Shown here: positions 14,962-27,633 of the stretch, one piece after another
How the letters are laid out: each line of letters begins with the position of its first letter
Position numbering within the stretch: position 1 is the stretch's first letter
Assembly (NCBI GenBank): GCA_000146045.2
Contig: BK006948.2
Span: 96,001 to 160,000, forward strand
DNA length: 64,000 nt
Origin: TPA_inf: Saccharomyces
Taxonomy: Eukaryota
Direction of reading: 5' to 3'
Position numbers and translations under genes: made by a program
Notes under the pieces: model-generated
Databases searched by the model: none
Told to the model about the DNA's origin: nothing
The model's input: only the letters and a program-made list of their open reading frames with translations

Positions 14962-15033
14962 TGAGCGGTACGAGAATCGAACCCGTGTCCCCACCTTGGA
15001 AGGGTGGGATGATAACCACTACACTAACCGCCC
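14962..15033 (-). tRNA. tG(UCC): tRNA-Gly (anticodon UCC), 72 nt
   Basis: Reverse complement reads GGGCGGTTAGTGTAGTGGTTATCATCCCACCCTTCCAAGGTGGGGACACGGGTTCGATTCTCGTACCGCTCA. It has a 7-bp acceptor stem, an A box (TAGTGTAGTGG), a B box (GGTTCGATTCT) and anticodon loop CTTCCAA, followed by an oligo-T pol III terminator on the minus strand (plus-strand A7 at 14927..14933). Confidence 0.95.
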
Positions 15034-17293: not shown

Positions 17294-17626
17294 TGAGAAA
17301 TGGGTGAATTTTGAAATAATTGTTGGGATTCCATCGTTGATAAAGGCTATAATATTAGGTATACAGAATGTACTAGAAGTTCTCCTCGATGATATAGGAA
17401 TCCCCATAATGGAATCTATATTTCTATGTACCAATATTACGATTATTCCTCATTCCATTTCATATGTTTCATTATCCTATTACATTATCGATCCTTGCAT
17501 TTCAGCTTCCTCTAACTTCGGTGACAGCTTCTATAATAACTTATGTCACTATCTAACACCGTATATGATAATATATTGATAGTATGACTACTAGTTGATA
17601 GACGATAGTTGGTTTTTATTCCAACA
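17294..17626 (-). repeat. Solo Ty1/Ty2 delta LTR (333 bp), 176 bp upstream of tRNA-Thr
   Basis: The reverse complement starts TGTTGGAATAAAAACCAACTATCGTCTATCAACTAGTAGTCATA... and ends ...ATGGAATCCCAACAATTATTTCAAAATTCACCCATTTCTCA. It is closely related to both LTRs of the downstream full-length Ty1. No internal Ty sequence is adjacent. Confidence 0.9.
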
Positions 17627-17801
17627 TCTACATAGTGGCACTCACTACGCTGCTAAATTTGATCATTTGGTGAATAATTTGATAATTAGTAGTTCTTCTC
17701 CGGGATATAGGAATCAACAAAAGGAAAACGATAGTTTTACATAATAATATTAATTTATCTTGCTTGGTTCGCCTTTGAAGAGCGCAGCTTTCAGAGATTT
17801 A

Positions 17802-17874
17802 GCTTCTATGGCCAAGTTGGTAAGGCGCCACACTAGTAATGTGGAGATCATCGGTTCAAATCCGATTGGAAGCA
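17802..17874 (+). tRNA. tT(AGU): tRNA-Thr (anticodon AGU), 73 nt
   Basis: GCTTCTATGGCCAAGTTGGTAAGGCGCCACACTAGTAATGTGGAGATCATCGGTTCAAATCCGATTGGAAGCA. It has a 7-bp acceptor stem (with one G-U pair), an A box (TGGCCAAGTTGG), a B box (GGTTCAAATCC) and anticodon loop ACTAGTAAT, hence anticodon AGT. Confidence 0.95.
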
Positions 17875-18137: not shown

Positions 18138-19808
18138 TCAGGCTCGATTATGAGATACGGTACTAGATAATTCAGGATTATCAGGATTATCAGGGTTTAC
18201 CACTTGCAATGGTCCGCTCATCATCATGTCGGGTAAAGAATTGGCACTGAACCTTTCATTTGCACTATTCAAAGTATTTGCCTCTTCAAAAACTGTCGAT
18301 GGAAGGTTCTGTTTCTGAACCGTAGCATCTTGTAAGCCAGCCAAGTTGTTTATGATGCTTCCACTGGTGTTTGAACTAGGACTACTATAATTTGCACCAT
18401 TACTCATAGAAAAACCATACATATTACTTGTACCGATAGAACCCGCTGTATTACCCCTTGAATGTCTCATCCAATTTGTCGTACCAGAGGAGGGAGGCGG
18501 TCCTATTGGATTTGCATCCTCATCACCGAACGAATAGGGCTGATAATGTTTCGTTTCCTCCAAGTCTAATTGGTCGTGCGATTTCCGTCTCCTCCATATC
18601 AGGAACAATAGAATCAAAATAATAAAAATTACGCCAAACACAACACCAATAACAATACCGGCAATGGCTCCACCACTCAGACGCTGCTTCGAAGTCGAAT
18701 TAGATCTATTATTTGAGGCGGCAGCAGTAGCAGTAGCTACCTCAGAAGATCGTTCAACCACGGATGTCCTCGTAACAAATATTGTTTCCTGATGTTGATC
18801 AGAAGTACTCACGATCGCTTTTGTAACCACACTAGTCACTAGTTCCACTGAGGTAACTATTGGTATCGTTGATGACGTACTAGGGGTCATTGAGGTCACT
18901 TTTGGAGTTGATAGTGTGCTGCTACTCGAGGACACTGGCACCAAGGTGGAAGAGGGTGAAGAAGTACGGCTATCGACTGTGGTATGCTCAGATGAGGACA
19001 ATGTAATGGATGAGGAGCTAGACGTAACAGAAAAGATAGAGGTAGTAGAGGAGGTAGTAGAGGAGGTAGTAGAAGAGGTAGTAGAAGAGGTGGTAGAAGA
19101 GGTGGTAGAAGAGGTGGTAGAAGAGGTGGTAGAAGAGGTAGTAGAGGAAGTCGAGGAAGAGGTAGTAGAAGAGGTGGTAGAAGAGGTGGTAGAAGAGGTG
19201 GTAGAAGAGGTAGTAGAGGAAGTCGAGGAAGAGGTTGTTGAAGTGGTAGAAACTGTCGTGGCTATCATTTCAGAACTTTTCATATCTGTTGACGTTCTCC
19301 TAGTAGTTGAAGAAATTTGGGCGGAGGACAATGAAGAAGTTGTTGAGGGCATATAGGAAGTGCTAGACCCTTCTTTGGAAGAGGAAGATTCAACCGATGA
19401 AACAAAAGTTTCAGCATTTACATACACGTTCATGTACGATGACCCTCCACACATTTGGTAAGGCCAGCCAGAGCATTTAGTTCCACAGTTTGAATCTGTT
19501 GATTTCGTCAAAGAAGTCAGAAAACTTACCGAATTACCGCAGTAACAATCTGACCCGTTAAATAATGCTACTACTGCTGACTCAGGGCACTGGTTTTGAC
19601 AGTATGACACTGATTGATATATGTATGAGTTTTTCAGAGACAGTCCAGCAGACTGGATATCCGCGGCACTGTAACAGCCTTCATAATTAAAATCAGCATT
19701 AACCAGCCCAATCAGAGATTGACATAGCAAACTTAGAAGTATAAATGAGATATACCCGATTTTAATAGTTCCTTTATTTGTTAATTTTGCAAACCATACT
19801 CTTTCCAT
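18138..19808 (-). CDS. WSC3: Cell-wall integrity stress sensor (WSC domain, Ser/Thr-rich stalk, single TM, cytoplasmic tail); 556 aa from Met at 19808
   Basis: Signal-peptide-like start MERVWFAKLTNKGTIKIGYISFILLSLLCQSLIGLVNA; Cys-rich WSC domain (CYSAADIQ...CQNQCPES...CYCGNS...CGTKCSGWPYQMCGG); a long (TSST)n stalk; a TM segment (AIAGIVIGVVFGVIFIILILLFLIW); a basic stop-transfer RRRK. The open frame extends 33 codons further upstream to 19907 (589 aa), but the signal-peptide context favours 19808. Confidence 0.85.
   Translation of the reverse strand: MERVWFAKLTNKGTIKIGYISFILLSLLCQSLIGLVNADFNYEGCYSAADIQSAGLSLKNSYIYQSVSYCQNQCPESAVVALFNGSDCYCGNSVSFLTSLTKSTDSNCGTKCSGWPYQMCGGSSYMNVYVNAETFVSSVESSSSKEGSSTSYMPSTTSSLSSAQISSTTRRTSTDMKSSEMIATTVSTTSTTSSSTSSTTSSTTSSTTSSTTSSTTSSSTSSTTSSTTSSTTSSTTSSTTSSTTSSTTSSTTSSTTSIFSVTSSSSSITLSSSEHTTVDSRTSSPSSTLVPVSSSSSTLSTPKVTSMTPSTSSTIPIVTSVELVTSVVTKAIVSTSDQHQETIFVTRTSVVERSSEVATATAAASNNRSNSTSKQRLSGGAIAGIVIGVVFGVIFIILILLFLIWRRRKSHDQLDLEETKHYQPYSFGDEDANPIGPPPSSGTTNWMRHSRGNTAGSIGTSNMYGFSMSNGANYSSPSSNTSGSIINNLAGLQDATVQKQNLPSTVFEEANTLNSANERFSANSLPDMMMSGPLQVVNPDNPDNPELSSTVSHNRA
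19041..19250. repeat. Coding 12-bp tandem repeat (about 15 units of GAGGTGGTAGAA and variants) encoding the (STTS)n stalk of WSC3
   Basis: Direct reading of gaggtagtagaagaggtggtagaagaggtggtagaagaggtgg... On the opposite strand it produces the spurious EVVEEVVEE ORF 18916..19356. Confidence 0.9.
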
Positions 19809-20395
19809 TTTATATTGTCTTCTGCTAAAAAAACAAACTATACGGACATGAATTTCATATAATGCACAAAGAAAATAGCTCACCAAATATTTCTCGAGGA
19901 TTATCACTAATTTCGAGGAACAATAGAAAATTAGTATGGCGAGGGATCAAAAAATTTTTTATAGCAAATGTTTGGAAAGAAAAAAATGTATAACGAATGC
20001 AATTGTTTTATTGAAGTGTAAGAAAAATCAATATCTAACCTAGATACTATTTCAGGCAATGAAGTAAAACAATGGTCCTGGTCTGCAGTATACCACTTAC
20101 GTTAAAAAGCTTTTTAAGATTAGTGCGGAGGCATAATTACTTTTTTTATAATAAAGAAAAAAATTCTCGAGTGGCTAAAATAAGAAGTTTGCCCGGATCT
20201 CAAAGGAGAGCGGGATGACGTAAAAATTCCTGATTTTGGAAAAATGCATTCCTACTAACGAATCGGCTGGTAAAATTAGGTTAAAAATCTCCTAGTGAAA
20301 GGGCAAACAGAAAAAAATCTTCACATTAAGCAAGATTTAAAGTAAACAGCAAAGAAAAGTTTTTTTTGGTTCAGATGTAATATGGATAGCCCGTT

Positions 20396-21697: not shown

Positions 21698-21702
21698 CCT
21701 TC
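21698..21702. repeat. Ty1 target-site duplication, left copy (CCTTC)
   Basis: The five bases CCTTC immediately precede the 5' LTR TGTTGG..., and the identical CCTTC follows the 3' LTR ...TTCTCA at 27629..27633. Confidence 0.9.
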
Positions 21703-22040
21703 TGTTGGAATAAAAATCCACTATCGTCTATCAACTAATAGTTATATTATCAATATATTATCATATACGGTGTTAAGATGATGACATAAGTTATGAGAAG
21801 CTGTCATCGATGTTAGAGGAAGCTGAAACGCAAGGATTGATAATGTAATAGGATCAATGAATATAAACATATAAAACGGAATGAGGAATAATCGTAATAT
21901 TAGTATGTAGAAATATAGATTCCATTTTGAGGATTCCTATATCCTCGAGGAGAACTTCTAGTATATTCTGTATACCTAATATTATAGCCTTTATCAACAA
22001 TGGAATCCCAACAATTATCTAATTACCCACAAATTTCTCA
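21703..22040 (+). repeat. Ty1 5' LTR (delta), 338 bp
   Basis: TGTTGGAATAAAAATCCACTATCG ... AATTACCCACAAATTTCTCA. The TYA ATG (22000) lies inside the LTR U5 region, as is canonical for Ty1. Confidence 0.95.
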
Positions 22041-23322
22041 TGGTAGCGCCTGTGCTTCGGTTACTTCTAAGGAAGTCCACACAAATCAAGATCCGTTAGA
22101 CGTTTCAGCTTCCAAAACAGAAGAATGTGAGAAGGCTTCCACTAAGGCTAACTCTCAACAGACAACAACACCTGCTTCATCAGCTGTTCCAGAGAACCCC
22201 CATCATGCCTCTCCTCAACCTGCTTCAGTACCACCTCCACAGAATGGGCCGTACCCACAGCAGTGCATGATGACCCAAAACCAAGCCAATCCATCTGGTT
22301 GGTCATTTTACGGACACCCATCTATGATTCCGTATACACCTTATCAAATGTCGCCTATGTACTTTCCACCTGGGCCACAATCACAGTTTCCGCAGTATCC
22401 ATCATCAGTTGGAACGCCTCTGAGCACTCCATCACCTGAGTCAGGTAATACATTTACTGATTCATCCTCAGCGGACTCTGATATGACATCCACTAAAAAA
22501 TATGTCAGACCACCACCAATGTTAACCTCACCTAATGACTTTCCAAATTGGGTTAAAACATACATCAAATTTTTACAAAACTCGAATCTCGGTGGTATTA
22601 TTCCGACAGTAAACGGAAAACCCGTACGTCAGATCACTGATGATGAACTCACCTTCTTGTATAACACTTTTCAAATATTTGCTCCCTCTCAATTCCTACC
22701 TACCTGGGTCAAAGACATCCTATCCGTTGATTATACGGATATCATGAAAATTCTTTCCAAAAGTATTGAAAAAATGCAATCTGATACCCAAGAGGCAAAC
22801 GACATTGTGACCCTGGCAAATTTGCAATATAATGGCAGTACACCTGCAGATGCATTTGAAACAAAAGTCACAAACATTATCAACAGACTGAACAATAATG
22901 GCATTCATATCAATAACAAGGTCGCATGCCAATTAATTATGAGAGGTCTATCTGGCGAATATAAATTTTTACGCTACACACGTCATCGACATCTAAATAT
23001 GACAGTCGCTGAACTGTTCTTAGATATCCATGCTATTTATGAAGAACAACAGGGATCGAGAAACAGCAAACCTAATTACAGGAGAAATCTGAGTGATGAG
23101 AAGAATGATTCTCGCAGCTATACGAATACAACCAAACCCAAAGTTATAGCTCGGAATCCTCAAAAAACAAATAATTCGAAATCGAAAACAGCCAGGGCTC
23201 ACAATGTATCCACATCTAATAACTCTCCCAGCACGGACAACGATTCCATCAGTAAATCAACTACTGAACCGATTCAATTGAACAATAAGCACGACCTTCA
23301 CCTTAGGCCAGGAACTTACTGA
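22000..23322 (+). CDS. TYA: Ty1 TYA (Gag capsid protein), 440 aa
   Basis: [45 protein letters not shown]..., typical Ty1 Gag. Ends at TGA 23320..23322, just after the frameshift heptamer. Confidence 0.95.
22041..22050 (+). other. Ty1 minus-strand primer-binding site (complementary to the 3' end of initiator tRNA-Met)
   Basis: TGGTAGCGCC immediately 3' of the 5' LTR. Confidence 0.85.
23302..23308 (+). other. Ty1 +1 ribosomal frameshift site (CUU-AGG-C heptamer) joining TYA to TYB
   Basis: CTTAGGC lies in the TYA frame (23302 is a codon start relative to 22000). The +1 frame beginning GGC at 23306 is open through 27268. Confidence 0.85.
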
Positions 23323-26300
23323 ATCTACGGTAAATCACACTAATCATTCTGATGATGAACTCCCTGGACACCTCCTTCTCGATTCAGGAGCATCACGAAC
23401 CCTTATAAGATCTGCTCATCACATACACTCAGCATCATCTAATCCTGACATAAACGTAGTTGATGCTCAAAAAAGAAATATACCAATTAACGCTATTGGT
23501 GACCTACAATTTCACTTCCAGGACAACACCAAAACATCAATAAAGGTATTGCACACTCCTAACATAGCCTATGACTTACTCAGTTTGAATGAATTGGCTG
23601 CAGTAGATATCACAGCATGCTTTACCAAAAACGTCTTAGAACGATCTGACGGCACTGTACTTGCACCTATCGTAAAATATGGAGACTTTTACTGGGTATC
23701 TAAAAAGTACTTGCTTCCATCAAATATCTCCGTACCCACCATCAATAATGTCCATACAAGTGAAAGTACACGCAAATATCCTTATCCTTTCATTCATCGA
23801 ATGCTTGCACATGCCAATGCACAGACAATTCGATACTCACTTAAAAATAACACCATCACGTATTTTAACGAATCAGATGTCGACTGGTCTAGTGCTATTG
23901 ACTATCAATGTCCTGATTGTTTAATCGGCAAAAGCACCAAACACAGACATATCAAAGGTTCACGACTAAAATACCAAAATTCATACGAACCCTTTCAATA
24001 CCTACATACTGACATATTTGGTCCAGTTCACAACCTACCAAAAAGTGCACCATCCTATTTCATCTCATTTACTGATGAGACAACAAAATTCCGTTGGGTT
24101 TATCCATTACACGACCGTCGCGAGGACTCTATCCTCGATGTTTTTACTACGATACTAGCTTTTATTAAGAACCAGTTTCAGGCCAGTGTCTTGGTTATAC
24201 AAATGGACCGTGGTTCTGAGTATACTAACAGAACTCTCCATAAATTCCTTGAAAAAAATGGTATAACTCCATGCTATACAACCACAGCGGATTCCCGAGC
24301 ACATGGAGTCGCTGAACGGCTCAACCGTACCTTATTAGATGACTGCCGTACTCAACTGCAATGTAGTGGTTTACCGAACCATTTATGGTTCTCTGCAATC
24401 GAATTTTCTACTATTGTGAGAAATTCACTAGCTTCACCTAAAAGCAAAAAATCTGCAAGACAACATGCTGGCTTGGCAGGACTTGATATCAGTACTTTGT
24501 TACCTTTCGGTCAACCTGTTATCGTCAATGATCACAACCCTAACTCCAAAATACATCCTCGTGGCATCCCAGGCTACGCTCTACATCCGTCTCGAAACTC
24601 TTATGGATATATCATCTATCTTCCATCCTTAAAGAAGACAGTAGATACAACTAACTATGTTATTCTTCAGGGCAAGGAATCCAGATTAGATCAATTCAAT
24701 TACGACGCACTCACTTTCGATGAAGACTTAAACCGTTTAACTGCTTCATATCAATCGTTCATTGCGTCAAATGAGATCCAACAATCCGATGATCTTAACA
24801 TAGAATCTGACCATGACTTCCAATCTGACATCGAACTACATCCTGAGCAACCGAGAAATGTCCTTTCAAAAGCTGTGAGTCCAACCGATTCCACACCTCC
24901 GTCAACTCATACTGAAGATTCGAAACGTGTTTCTAAAACCAATATTCGCGCACCCAGAGAAGTTGACCCCAACATATCTGAATCTAATATTCTTCCATCA
25001 AAGAAGAGATCTAGCACCCCCCAAATTTCCAATATCGAGAGTACCGGTTCGGGTGGTATGCATAAATTAAATGTTCCTTTACTTGCTCCCATGTCCCAAT
25101 CTAACACACATGAGTCGTCGCACGCCAGTAAATCTAAAGATTTCAGACACTCAGACTCGTACAGTGAAAATGAGACTAATCATACAAACGTACCAATATC
25201 CAGTACGGGTGGTACCAACAACAAAACTGTTCCGCAGATAAGTGACCAAGAGACTGAGAAAAGGATTATACACCGTTCACCTTCAATCGATGCTTCTCCA
25301 CCGGAAAATAATTCATCGCACAATATTGTTCCTATCAAAACGCCAACTACTGTTTCTGAACAGAATACCGAGGAATCTATCATCGCTGATCTCCCACTCC
25401 CTGATCTACCTCCAGAATCTCCTACCGAATTCCCTGACCCATTTAAAGAACTCCCACCGATAAATTCTCATCAAACTAATTCCAGTTTGGGTGGTATTGG
25501 TGACTCTAATGCCTATACTACTATCAACAGTAAGAAAAGATCATTAGAAGATAATGAAACTGAAATTAAGGTATCACGAGACACATGGAATACTAAGAAT
25601 ATGCGTAGTTTAGAACCTCCGAGATCGAAGAAACGAATTCACCTGATTGCAGCTGTAAAAGCAGTAAAATCAATCAAACCAATACGGACAACCTTACGAT
25701 ACGATGAGGCAATCACCTATAATAAAGATATTAAAGAAAAAGAAAAATATATCGAGGCATACCACAAAGAAGTCAATCAACTGTTGAAGATGAAAACTTG
25801 GGACACTGACGAATATTATGACAGAAAAGAAATAGACCCTAAAAGAGTAATAAACTCAATGTTTATCTTCAACAAGAAACGTGACGGTACTCATAAAGCT
25901 AGATTTGTTGCAAGAGGTGATATTCAGCATCCTGACACTTACGACTCAGGCATGCAATCCAATACCGTACATCACTATGCATTAATGACATCCCTGTCAC
26001 TTGCATTAGACAATAACTACTATATTACACAATTAGACATATCTTCGGCATATTTGTATGCAGACATCAAAGAAGAATTATACATAAGACCTCCACCACA
26101 TTTAGGAATGAATGATAAGTTGATACGTTTGAAGAAATCACTTTATGGATTGAAACAAAGTGGAGCGAACTGGTACGAAACTATCAAATCATACCTGATA
26201 AAACAGTGTGGTATGGAAGAAGTTCGTGGATGGTCATGCGTATTTAAGAATAGTCAAGTAACAATATGTTTATTTGTTGACGACATGATTTTATTCAGCA

Positions 26301-27268
26301 AAGACTTAAATGCAAATAAGAAAATCATAACAACACTCAAGAAACAATACGATACAAAGATAATAAATCTGGGTGAAAGTGATAACGAAATTCAGTACGA
26401 CATACTTGGCTTAGAAATCAAATATCAAAGAGGTAAATACATGAAATTAGGTATGGAAAACTCATTAACTGAGAAAATACCCAAATTAAACGTACCTTTG
26501 AATCCAAAAGGAAGAAAACTTAGCGCTCCAGGTCAACCAGGTCTTTATATAGACCAGGATGAACTAGAAATAGATGAAGATGAATACAAAGAGAAGGTAC
26601 ATGAAATGCAAAAGTTGATTGGTCTAGCTTCATATGTTGGATATAAATTTAGATTTGACTTACTATACTACATCAACACACTTGCTCAACATATACTATT
26701 CCCCTCTAGGCAAGTTTTAGACATGACATATGAGTTGATACAATTCATGTGGGACACTAGAGATAAACAACTGATATGGCACAAAAACAAACCTACCGAG
26801 CCAGATAATAAACTAGTCGCAATAAGTGATGCTTCGTATGGCAACCAACCGTATTATAAATCACAAATTGGCAACATATATTTACTTAATGGAAAGGTAA
26901 TTGGAGGAAAGTCCACCAAGGCTTCATTAACATGTACTTCAACTACGGAAGCAGAAATACACGCGATAAGTGAATCTGTCCCATTATTAAATAATCTAAG
27001 TTACCTGATACAAGAACTTAACAAGAAACCAATTATTAAAGGCTTACTTACTGATAGTAGATCAACGATCAGTATAATTAAGTCTACAAATGAAGAGAAA
27101 TTTAGAAACAGATTTTTTGGCACAAAGGCAATGAGACTTAGAGATGAAGTATCAGGTAATAATTTATACGTATACTACATCGAGACCAAGAAGAACATTG
27201 CTGATGTGATGACAAAACCTCTTCCGATAAAAACATTCAAACTATTAACAAACAAATGGATTCATTAG
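23306..27268 (+). CDS. TYB: Ty1 TYB (Pol: protease, integrase, reverse transcriptase, RNase H), expressed as a Gag-Pol fusion via +1 frameshift
   Basis: +1 frame open from 23306; the first in-frame Met is at 23549. Protease D(S/T)G ([11 protein letters not shown]); integrase zinc motif H..H...C..C ([10 protein letters not shown] ... CPDCLIGK) and D,D(35)E; RT YXDD ([10 protein letters not shown]). Confidence 0.9.
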
Positions 27269-27282
27269 ATCTATTACATTAT

Positions 27283-27290
27283 GGGTGGTA
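27283..27290 (+). other. Ty1 polypurine tract (plus-strand primer)
   Basis: GGGTGGTA immediately 5' of the 3' LTR. Confidence 0.8.
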
Positions 27291-27628
27291 TGTTGGAATA
27301 AAAATCCACTATCGTCTATCAACTAATAGTTATATTATCAATATATTATCATATACGGTGTTAAGATGATGACATAAGTTATGAGAAGCTGTCATCGATG
27401 TTAGAGGAAGCTGAAACGCAAGGATTGATAATGTAATAGGATCAATGAATATAAACATATAAAACGGAATGAGGAATAATCGTAATATTAGTATGTAGAA
27501 ATATAGATTCCATTTTGAGGATTCCTATATCCTCGAGGAGAACTTCTAGTATATTCTGTATACCTAATATTATAGCCTTTATCAACAATGGAATCCCAAC
27601 AATTATCTCAACATTCACCCATTTCTCA
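27291..27628 (+). repeat. Ty1 3' LTR (delta), 338 bp
   Basis: Identical to the 5' LTR over the first 318 bp. Differs at 7 of the last 20 bp (CAACATTCACCCATTTCTCA versus AATTACCCACAAATTTCTCA in the 5' LTR). Confidence 0.95.
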
Positions 27629-27633
27629 CCTTC
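27629..27633. repeat. Ty1 target-site duplication, right copy (CCTTC)
   Basis: See left copy at 21698..21702. Confidence 0.9.

Follow-up and report, generated by a model that had tools for sequence, protein, structure and literature searches.

Discordant U5 ends in the two long terminal repeats of the Ty1 element YOLWTy1-1 on Saccharomyces cerevisiae chromosome XV

Anatomy and age of YOLWTy1-1

We analyzed a stretch of 64,000 nucleotides (referred to here as the window) from chromosome XV of Saccharomyces cerevisiae S288C, about positions 96001-160000, which contains at 21703-27628 on the forward strand the intact and already annotated Ty1 element YOLWTy1-1. The subject of this report is a short difference between the two long terminal repeats (LTRs) of this element that is confined to the end of the U5 region. 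The 5' LTR (338 bp, TG...CA; 21703..22040, +) and the 3' LTR (338 bp; 27291..27628, +) both read TGTTGG...TCTCA, and they are flanked by a target-site duplication of CCTTC (left copy 21698..21702, right copy 27629..27633). The primer-binding site (PBS), TGGTAGCGCC at 22041..22050 (+), is complementary to the 3' end of initiator tRNA-Met and has one match only in the window. The TYA (gag) open reading frame (ORF) of 440 amino acids (22000..23322, +) matches Pfam TYA with E = 2.7e-233, and the TYB (pol) frame (23306..27268, +), open up to its stop, covers protease, integrase and reverse transcriptase (RT)/RNase H (Pfam rve, RVT_2 and Pol_BBD). The gag/pol overlap holds the heptamer CTTAGGC (23302..23308, +), which we take to be the Ty1 +1 frameshift site, and the polypurine tract GGGTGGTA (27283..27290, +), presumably PPT1, adjoins the 3' LTR. 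With LTRs, 5-bp duplication, PBS, polypurine tract and TYA/TYB all found, YOLWTy1-1 is a complete Ty1 (Pseudoviridae/copia-type).

Carr et al. 2012 (PMC3511429) place YOLWTy1-1 (chrXV_u31+) at chrXV 117703-123628, and at an offset of 96000 their LTR coordinates correspond to 21703-22040 and 27291-27628 of the window. A script comparison found the window LTRs identical to those in the File S6 alignment of Carr et al. 2012, where the 5' LTR is chrXV_u31+_TY1_5; the 3' LTR is identical to that of another S288C element, YPRCTy1-4 (u35). The 5' untranslated region (UTR) of Ty1 is 53 nt and its PBS is 10 nt (PMC3592414). Since the AUG lies at 22000, the RNA would start at 21947, so that R-U5 of the 5' LTR (21947..22040, +) would form the 5' end of the genomic RNA and the PBS would fall at RNA nt 95-104. 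The Gag ORF equals UniProt Q92392/NP_058182, 'Transposon Ty1-OL Gag', residue for residue and is 97-99% identical to the Gag proteins of Ty1-OR, DR3, ML1 and BR. Taking at least about 97% identity to other S288C canonical Ty1 Gag proteins as the criterion, YOLWTy1-1 is a canonical-gag Ty1 and not Ty1' or Ty2.

We found an empty site with a single CCTTC at the exact point of insertion in six other assemblies. The intact CCTTC duplication together with this exact empty site indicates a single simple integration and excludes a crossover between two elements; the element was accordingly rejected as an inter-element crossover product, its flanking 5-mers matching (CCTTC/CCTTC) and its empty site being exact. 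According to File S2 of Carr et al. 2012, only 2 of the 25 SGRP strains that could be scored carry YOLWTy1-1, which indicates that it is young. Compared to its orthologs it carries only one or two private substitutions.

The LTRs differ only at the end of U5

The 5' and 3' LTRs differ at exactly seven sites, LTR positions 319, 321, 322, 324, 325, 329 and 330, while positions 1-318 and 331-338 are identical, so that differences outside the patch number zero. In the window the seven sites are 22021, 22023, 22024, 22026, 22027, 22031 and 22032, facing 27609...27620 of the 3' LTR. The patch of the 5' LTR (AATTACCCACAA; 22021..22032, +) represents a U5 haplotype that we refer to by the Gag residues it encodes, SNYP, and covers Gag residues 8-11, while the patch of the 3' LTR (CAACATTCACCC; 27609..27620, +) represents the Ty1-H3-like SQHSP haplotype. 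A preliminary description of this DNA had reported LTRs identical over 318 bp with 7 of the last 20 bp different, and we could confirm both its coordinates and its sequences. It had also placed the patch in the TYA-coding part of U5 beside the PBS, where it alters Gag; this holds as well, with codons 8-11 changed and the start of Gag as given there. The standard scheme, in which a single minus-strand strong-stop DNA serves as template for both LTRs, expects identical LTRs at insertion. YOLWTy1-1, a young and otherwise unmutated element, departs from it with seven differences (six in the L023 assembly described below) that match standing haplotypes.

The differences are not those expected of scattered mutation. 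By chance, seven differences would all fall within the last 20 of 338 positions with a probability of 8e-10; in 2,000,000 random draws of seven differences, not one was confined to 12 nt or less. We weighed independent point mutations or RT errors near the U5/PBS border of one LTR as an explanation. A hot spot of RT errors where U5 meets the PBS was reportedly described by Gabriel and colleagues. In some copies (u25, L005, u2 and the record that opens the alignment of Czaja et al. 2020, PMC7055915), private single substitutions are clustered at the U5 end. Such an origin is nevertheless very unlikely for the patch as a whole: six of the seven differences turn one standing haplotype exactly into another, which many Ty1 copies and S. 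paradoxus carry, and seven independent hits within 12 nt have a probability below 1e-9. At most the A at 22032, where one ortholog has C, may be a private change. Thus the earlier suggestion that the clustered differences are the recombination product of two different Ty1 templates, and not scattered mutation, stands.

An assembly or reference artefact through misplaced reads, whether of other Ty1 copies or of the second LTR, deserves consideration since Ty1 is a high-copy repeat and the chromosome XV reference in Ty regions dates from the 1990s. We found the same insertion in a chromosome-scale assembly of another isolate (L040, GCA_947370585.1), where the U5 end of each LTR is the same as in S288C and the private bases are shared, and in a further assembly (L023, GCA_949121635.1) with six of the seven differences, position 22032 being C. 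The occurrence of the same discordance in both indicates that it is not an error of transcription, reference or assembly. L023 departs from the reference at 22032 and 22882, which could be held in favor of an artefact; against it, each patch lies within 20 nt of sequence that tells the LTRs apart (the PBS for one patch, unique flank for the other), both ends and the two private bases are found again in L040, L023 reproduces the discordance itself, and the LTR discordance of a second S288C element, i4, recurs in its CEN.PK ortholog (L017). We consider an artefact exceedingly unlikely.

Two positions separate the available versions of the insertion. Position 22032 is A in S288C and L040, C in L023, and C or T in other Ty1 copies; the A gives Gag residue 11 as Q instead of H and may be a later private change. 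Position 22882 is A in S288C and L040 and G in L023 and all other Ty1 copies compared, a difference that corresponds to Gag D295N. This split reflects either two alleles of the insertion or polishing of L023 towards the Ty1 consensus.

Both ends are common U5 haplotypes of active Ty1

Haplotypes were defined from published alignments of all S288C Ty1 LTRs and from full elements of other genomes, which were gathered via Gag variants and the flanking genes NDJ1 and ITR2. Two haplotypes of the 20 nt that end Ty1 U5 are common. Type A, which is also that of Ty1-H3, is CAACATTCACCCATTTCTCA and encodes Gag SQHSP; type B, AATTACCCACATATATCTCA, encodes SNYPH and has minor variants such as AATTACCCACACATTTCTCA. 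The 3' LTR of YOLWTy1-1 ends in pure type A (CAACATTCACCC, Gag SQHSP), and its 5' LTR ends in a type B variant (AATTACCCACA, Gag SNYP). Among 41 active S288C Ty1 LTRs, 23 carry CTCAACATTC and 14 carry CTAATTACCCA, and the B form, with an end of the latter type, is also found in Ty1 LTRs of S. paradoxus. The solo LTR st23 and DBVPG6044_f14 contain precisely the version of the 5' LTR, AATTACCCACAC; st23 equals the 5' LTR of YOLWTy1-1 except at LTR position 330 and equals the L023 allele exactly. Neither end is aberrant; both represent U5 haplotypes that are common in active Ty1.

All other LTRs that share the U3 of YOLWTy1-1 (i15, i11, i4, i6 and solo st23) have B-family ends, which makes the 5' end normal for its LTR subfamily. 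The preliminary description had treated the 5' variant as a deviation from the canonical sequence; this does not hold, given that 14 of the 41 active LTRs share its type and that it is standard for its U3 subfamily. Which piece appears foreign depends on the yardstick: the 3' end when compared to its own U3 subfamily, the 5' end when compared to the adjacent gag.

The U3 of YOLWTy1-1 contains a Ty2-like segment that is common to the Ty2 LTR reference (GAAGCTGAAACGCAAGG...GATCAATGAATAT, AAACGCAA...GATCAATGAATAT and GAAGCTGAAACGCAAGG...GGATCAATGAATAT) and absent from canonical Ty1 LTRs, which places these LTRs in the Ty1/2 hybrid class. The same Ty2-like U3 segment characterizes the Ty1/Ty2 hybrid subfamily of S288C (Jordan & McDonald 1998; Carr et al. 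2012, PMC3511429). Hybrid status accounts for the U3, while the discordant patch is not derived from Ty2: the Ty2 U5 end, CAAAATCCACATTCTCTTCA, differs from the 5' and 3' ends of YOLWTy1-1 at 9 and 8 of 20 positions, respectively. We rejected a Ty2 origin for either patch on these grounds, and of the earlier suggestion that a Ty1/Ty2 LTR subfamily had been the donor, the Ty2 part is refuted by the same count.

Divergence was also seen elsewhere in the element. The last ~400 nt of TYB (26900-27290) show 16-20 mismatches per 200 nt to all Ty1 references fetched. The C-terminus of pol appears to resemble that of the Ty2 protein, which would be consistent with the Ty1/2 hybrid class, since a Ty2-like 3' part of TYB is, like the U3 segment, among the features of that class. 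Among the viral contigs of IMG/VR none matched the 5' patch, and a look-up of the representative of the Gag cluster returned only metagenome contigs without LTRs.

The exchange point lies in an interval that contains the PBS

Gag codons 40-44 form a second haplotype block, which in this sample reads TEECE with type A U5 (L010-L012 and L018) and IQEYD with type B U5 (L001, L005, L016 and L017). YOLWTy1-1 combines a B-type U5 with TEECE (22118..22131, +). Its sequence at 22021-22031 matches the four B-type copies, while 22118-22131 and position 23090 match A-type copies, and the interior from ~22100 to ~26900 is nearly identical to the A-type element L010. These matches put the exchange point between 22031 and 22118, an interval that contains the PBS (22041-22050). 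The U5 of the 3' LTR thus belongs with the gag of the element, and the U5 of the 5' LTR belongs with its U3. The junction can only be placed within 22031-22118 because the pre-existing version AATTACCCACAC shares its last bases with type A. We withdrew a narrower reading, a fresh B-to-A mosaic with a junction at 22031-22035 and a misincorporation that accompanied the switch at 22032, given that AATTACCCACAC pre-exists in st23 and DBVPG6044_f14 and that L023 has C.

The active Ty1 LTRs compared do not vary in R or in the remainder of U5, which therefore supply no markers. For this reason the perfect identity of the LTRs elsewhere, which the preliminary description had used as evidence, is uninformative on the length of the exchanged tract.

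The two blocks also pair in a predicted RNA structure. In the minimum-free-energy fold of the A-type RNA, the U5 block (22018-22038, nt 72-92) pairs with the codon 40-44 block (22119-22132, nt 173-186), and the same fold recovers the published 1-7/264-270 stem. The chimera represented by YOLWTy1-1 retains only six pairs of this helix. A coupling of U5 and codons 40-44 through RNA structure was rejected, as the helix has no covariation support and is lost in type B, with one compensatory pair only.

U5-end discordance recurs in other Ty1 copies

We surveyed 18 elements for 5'/3' LTR differences, four S288C pairs (u32, u27, u28 and i8) being compared by eye. Differences in the last 20 nt were found in 7 of the 18, compared to three elements with differences elsewhere (~315 nt), a distribution with a binomial P of ~7e-7. 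In YPRCTy1-4 (u35), whose 3' LTR is that of YOLWTy1-1, the 5' LTR departs from it at three of the sites that are discordant in YOLWTy1-1. The CEN.PK element L018 has two differing sites in the last 20 nt (CC versus AT), and i4/L017, u25, u2 and L005 have one or two differing sites each, all in the last 20 nt (7022-7041/12613-12632 in L005). Outside the last 20 nt we found one difference in i9, two in u3 and a 2-bp indel in u2. Target duplications are intact in the discordant copies that were fetched (L005, L017 and L018). Across copies the U5-end differences are a mixture of haplotype swaps and private substitutions.

Among the pairs examined, no U3 haplotype discordance was seen in elements with intact duplications. 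One element, L031 (GCA_012275245.1; LTRs 7208-7541/12753-13066), has LTRs of different U3 types with 46 aligned differences and concordant U5 ends. Its flanking 5-mers, AAAAG/AAAAC, are one base apart, so that it is not a simple insertion; it resembles a recombinant between elements or a chimera of the assembly. In the Czaja alignment, type B ends number at least 11 at the 5' side versus at least 8 at the 3' side, and type A ends at least 14 versus at least 12, among the records listed; these counts are uninformative.

Origin of the discordance

We hypothesize that the LTRs of YOLWTy1-1 were already discordant at insertion, the complementary DNA (cDNA) having been made in a virus-like particle that contained two different Ty1 RNAs; our data lean modestly towards this reading. 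In the proposed sequence of events, minus-strand strong-stop DNA would be primed on an A-type RNA (SQHSP U5, TEECE gag), and this DNA would fix the U5 of the 3' LTR. RNase H would destroy R-U5 of the A RNA, so that the minus strand would run out of template at the PBS region. It could then continue on the intact U5-R of a co-packaged SNYP (B-type) RNA, by a forced template switch or by read-through. A-type plus-strand strong-stop DNA would anneal to this minus strand and leave a short U5 heteroduplex in the 5' LTR only, where the SNYP version would be fixed by replication or by mismatch repair after integration. A variant with the same product is an intermolecular plus-strand transfer. Both the order of these steps and the placing of the event before rather than after integration are what we infer from the product.

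We propose that two parental RNAs in one replication cycle could account for every piece of YOLWTy1-1. Both haplotypes exist in other copies and the junction at 22031-22118 brackets the PBS. A difference in U5 only would follow because the genomic RNA has U5 only at its 5' end, while the single 3' U3 templates both LTRs. Published work fits this model on three points: the Ty1 PBS is inherited strictly from RNA on both strands (PMC7472051, citing Lauermann & Boeke 1997), first-strand transfer of Ty1 can take place between molecules and parental RNAs are combined as mosaics in de novo insertions (PMC6894440), and in strain Y12 mosaic Ty1 elements have breakpoints at the boundary of the gag ORF, the start of which lies in U5 (PMC7055915).

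The principal rival is ectopic gene conversion after integration, in which the 5' LTR would have been repaired from a SNYP-type Ty1 LTR or from Ty1 cDNA; we regard it as a real possibility, though short of an even chance. The element would have started with two identical LTRs (this U3 with an SQHSP U5), and, with the same reservation as to its likelihood, the tract would end within or just beyond the last LTR bases. Gene conversion of Ty elements, cDNA-mediated conversion included, is established. Roeder and Fink, Kupiec and Petes, and Melamed et al. are said to have described ectopic conversion between Ty elements or between Ty and cDNA. In YOLWTy1-1, homology is ample on both sides of the 5' patch, donors are at hand in the same genome (st23 is near-identical, and i15, i11 and i4 share the U3), and the tract is forced to stop near the LTR end if the donor is a solo or 3' LTR. 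Carr et al. 2012 (PMC3511429) infer no fewer than 41 recombination events among the 32 full-length S288C Ty1 copies; they also stress that conversion is infrequent.

Several observations speak against conversion. For a young element without any other LTR change it has to invoke a further event and a third sequence, and the ancestor it postulates, with this U3 and an SQHSP end on both LTRs, was not found among the pairs examined. It also leaves unexplained the concentration of differences in U5 across copies and the fact that U3 is never discordant where duplications are intact. Ectopic Ty conversion resembles what is seen here in that it is a short non-reciprocal transfer between dispersed repeats with unchanged flanks; however, it is not expected to be confined to the U5 end or to recur there. 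Finally, it is powerless at the extreme end of the 3' LTR, since only 8 bp of homology lie to the right of the 3' patch, which argues that this end was not changed by homologous recombination after integration. The preliminary description had left the choice between gene conversion and a template switch or read-through at a heterologous U5; our data favor the reverse-transcription origin and rank conversion second.

An origin from two co-packaged RNAs must be weighed against a number of points. Sequence alone gives no timing, and chromosomal or cDNA-mediated conversion by an SNYP-type LTR yields the same product. The missing U3 discordance could reflect a preference of homologous recombination for identical donors. 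The survey comprises 18 elements, and some CEN.PK copies may be unrecognized orthologs of S288C copies. L031 does have LTRs of different U3 type, though it lacks an intact target duplication. By the standard scheme of reverse transcription the two LTRs should be identical (PMC6894440). The switch point is only bounded, the 5' haplotype sharing its last 9 nt with type A. The read-through step reportedly has precedents in retrovirology and in the work of Lauermann and Boeke.

More tentatively, and with a likelihood that we put below even, the PBS-proximal U5 of the 5' and 3' LTRs of Ty1 may routinely come from different molecules, minus-strand read-through supplying one and strong-stop DNA the other. 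Recurrent discordance confined to U5 in copies with intact duplications is the expectation if the two U5 copies can have different templates. If such dual templating is routine, particles with mixed RNAs would yield insertions whose LTRs are discordant from birth, and both co-packaging and the unusual plus-strand transfer of Ty1 could be read from the record in genomic Ty1 copies. Dating by LTR divergence would then be systematically inflated for such copies.

Relation to known systems

Mosaic Ty1 elements arise by reverse-transcription recombination of co-packaged RNAs (Boeke 1986; Wilhelm 1999; Bleykasten-Grosshans 2011; reviewed in PMC6894440), and as in YOLWTy1-1 two parental sequences are joined in one new copy. 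The LTRs bear the mark of inter- or intramolecular strand transfer, and the interior of YOLWTy1-1 is likewise a patchwork when compared to other copies. However, the mosaics described there end with identical LTRs, while the LTRs of YOLWTy1-1 differ, in U5 only. Beyond the mosaic scheme, YOLWTy1-1 thus needs an added step: at the PBS the minus strand would read through or switch template, leaving a heteroduplex, or else plus-strand transfer would be intermolecular.

Czaja et al. 2020 (PMC7055915) report a mosaic Ty1 in strain Y12 and an origin of canonical gag by horizontal transfer, and the SNYP U5 end matches S. paradoxus Ty1 LTRs. The Y12 mosaics are fixed recombinants at the level of a subfamily, presumably with concordant LTRs, whereas YOLWTy1-1 represents a single-copy event with discordant LTRs. 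Heterozygous virions of retroviruses offer a further likeness through pseudodiploid packaging and possible intermolecular strand transfers. Retroviral plus-strand transfer copies the tRNA and gives a PBS heteroduplex, in contrast to Ty1, in which the PBS comes from RNA on both strands (PMC7472051). In the literature searched we found no statement on U5-only LTR discordance in genomic Ty1 copies, nor on the LTR difference of YOLWTy1-1.

YOLWTy1-1 is thus a known element that underwent a known kind of process, and the patch is a recombination scar, most likely from reverse transcription, and not the mark of a new kind of element. The U5 discordance bears on the mechanism of Ty1 plus-strand transfer, which is incompletely settled. 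It also has a practical consequence: an LTR clock would make YOLWTy1-1 look 2.1% diverged, while the insertion, found in 2 of 25 strains, is very recent. Differences at the U5 end should be left out when Ty1 copies are dated by LTR divergence.

Surroundings of the element

YOLWTy1-1 is inserted between NDJ1 and ITR2, and the closest tRNA gene is 3.8 kb away. The tRNA genes near it are Thr-AGT (17802-17874, +) and Gly-TCC (14962-15033, -). Ty1 usually integrates in a zone upstream of genes transcribed by RNA polymerase III, and YOLWTy1-1 falls outside that zone. An old solo delta (17294..17626, -) upstream of tRNA-Thr(AGT) and a delta fragment (17687-17752) are, unlike YOLWTy1-1, located where a Ty1 insertion is expected.

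The solo delta ends in CAAAATTCACCCATTTCTCA, and the earlier claim that it has an end of the 3' LTR type is borne out, with one mismatch. We rejected it as donor of the 3' patch, as it has 88-90% identity to the LTRs of YOLWTy1-1 and reads CAAAATTC instead of CAACATTC. Another solo delta fragment, which adjoins the full Ty1 of L005 (6620-6707, -), has a U5 end that is itself a mosaic, CAACATTCACAAATATCTCA, with type A on the left, the CAA triplet as in YOLWTy1-1, and type B on the right.

The window also contains, within an ORF of 589 amino acids (18138-19907, -), a tandem array at 19007-19270 with a period of 12 nt and at least 13 copies at 63-80% identity. The array presumably encodes the Ser/Thr-rich repeat of a cell-wall sensor gene, which by its position we take to be WSC3.

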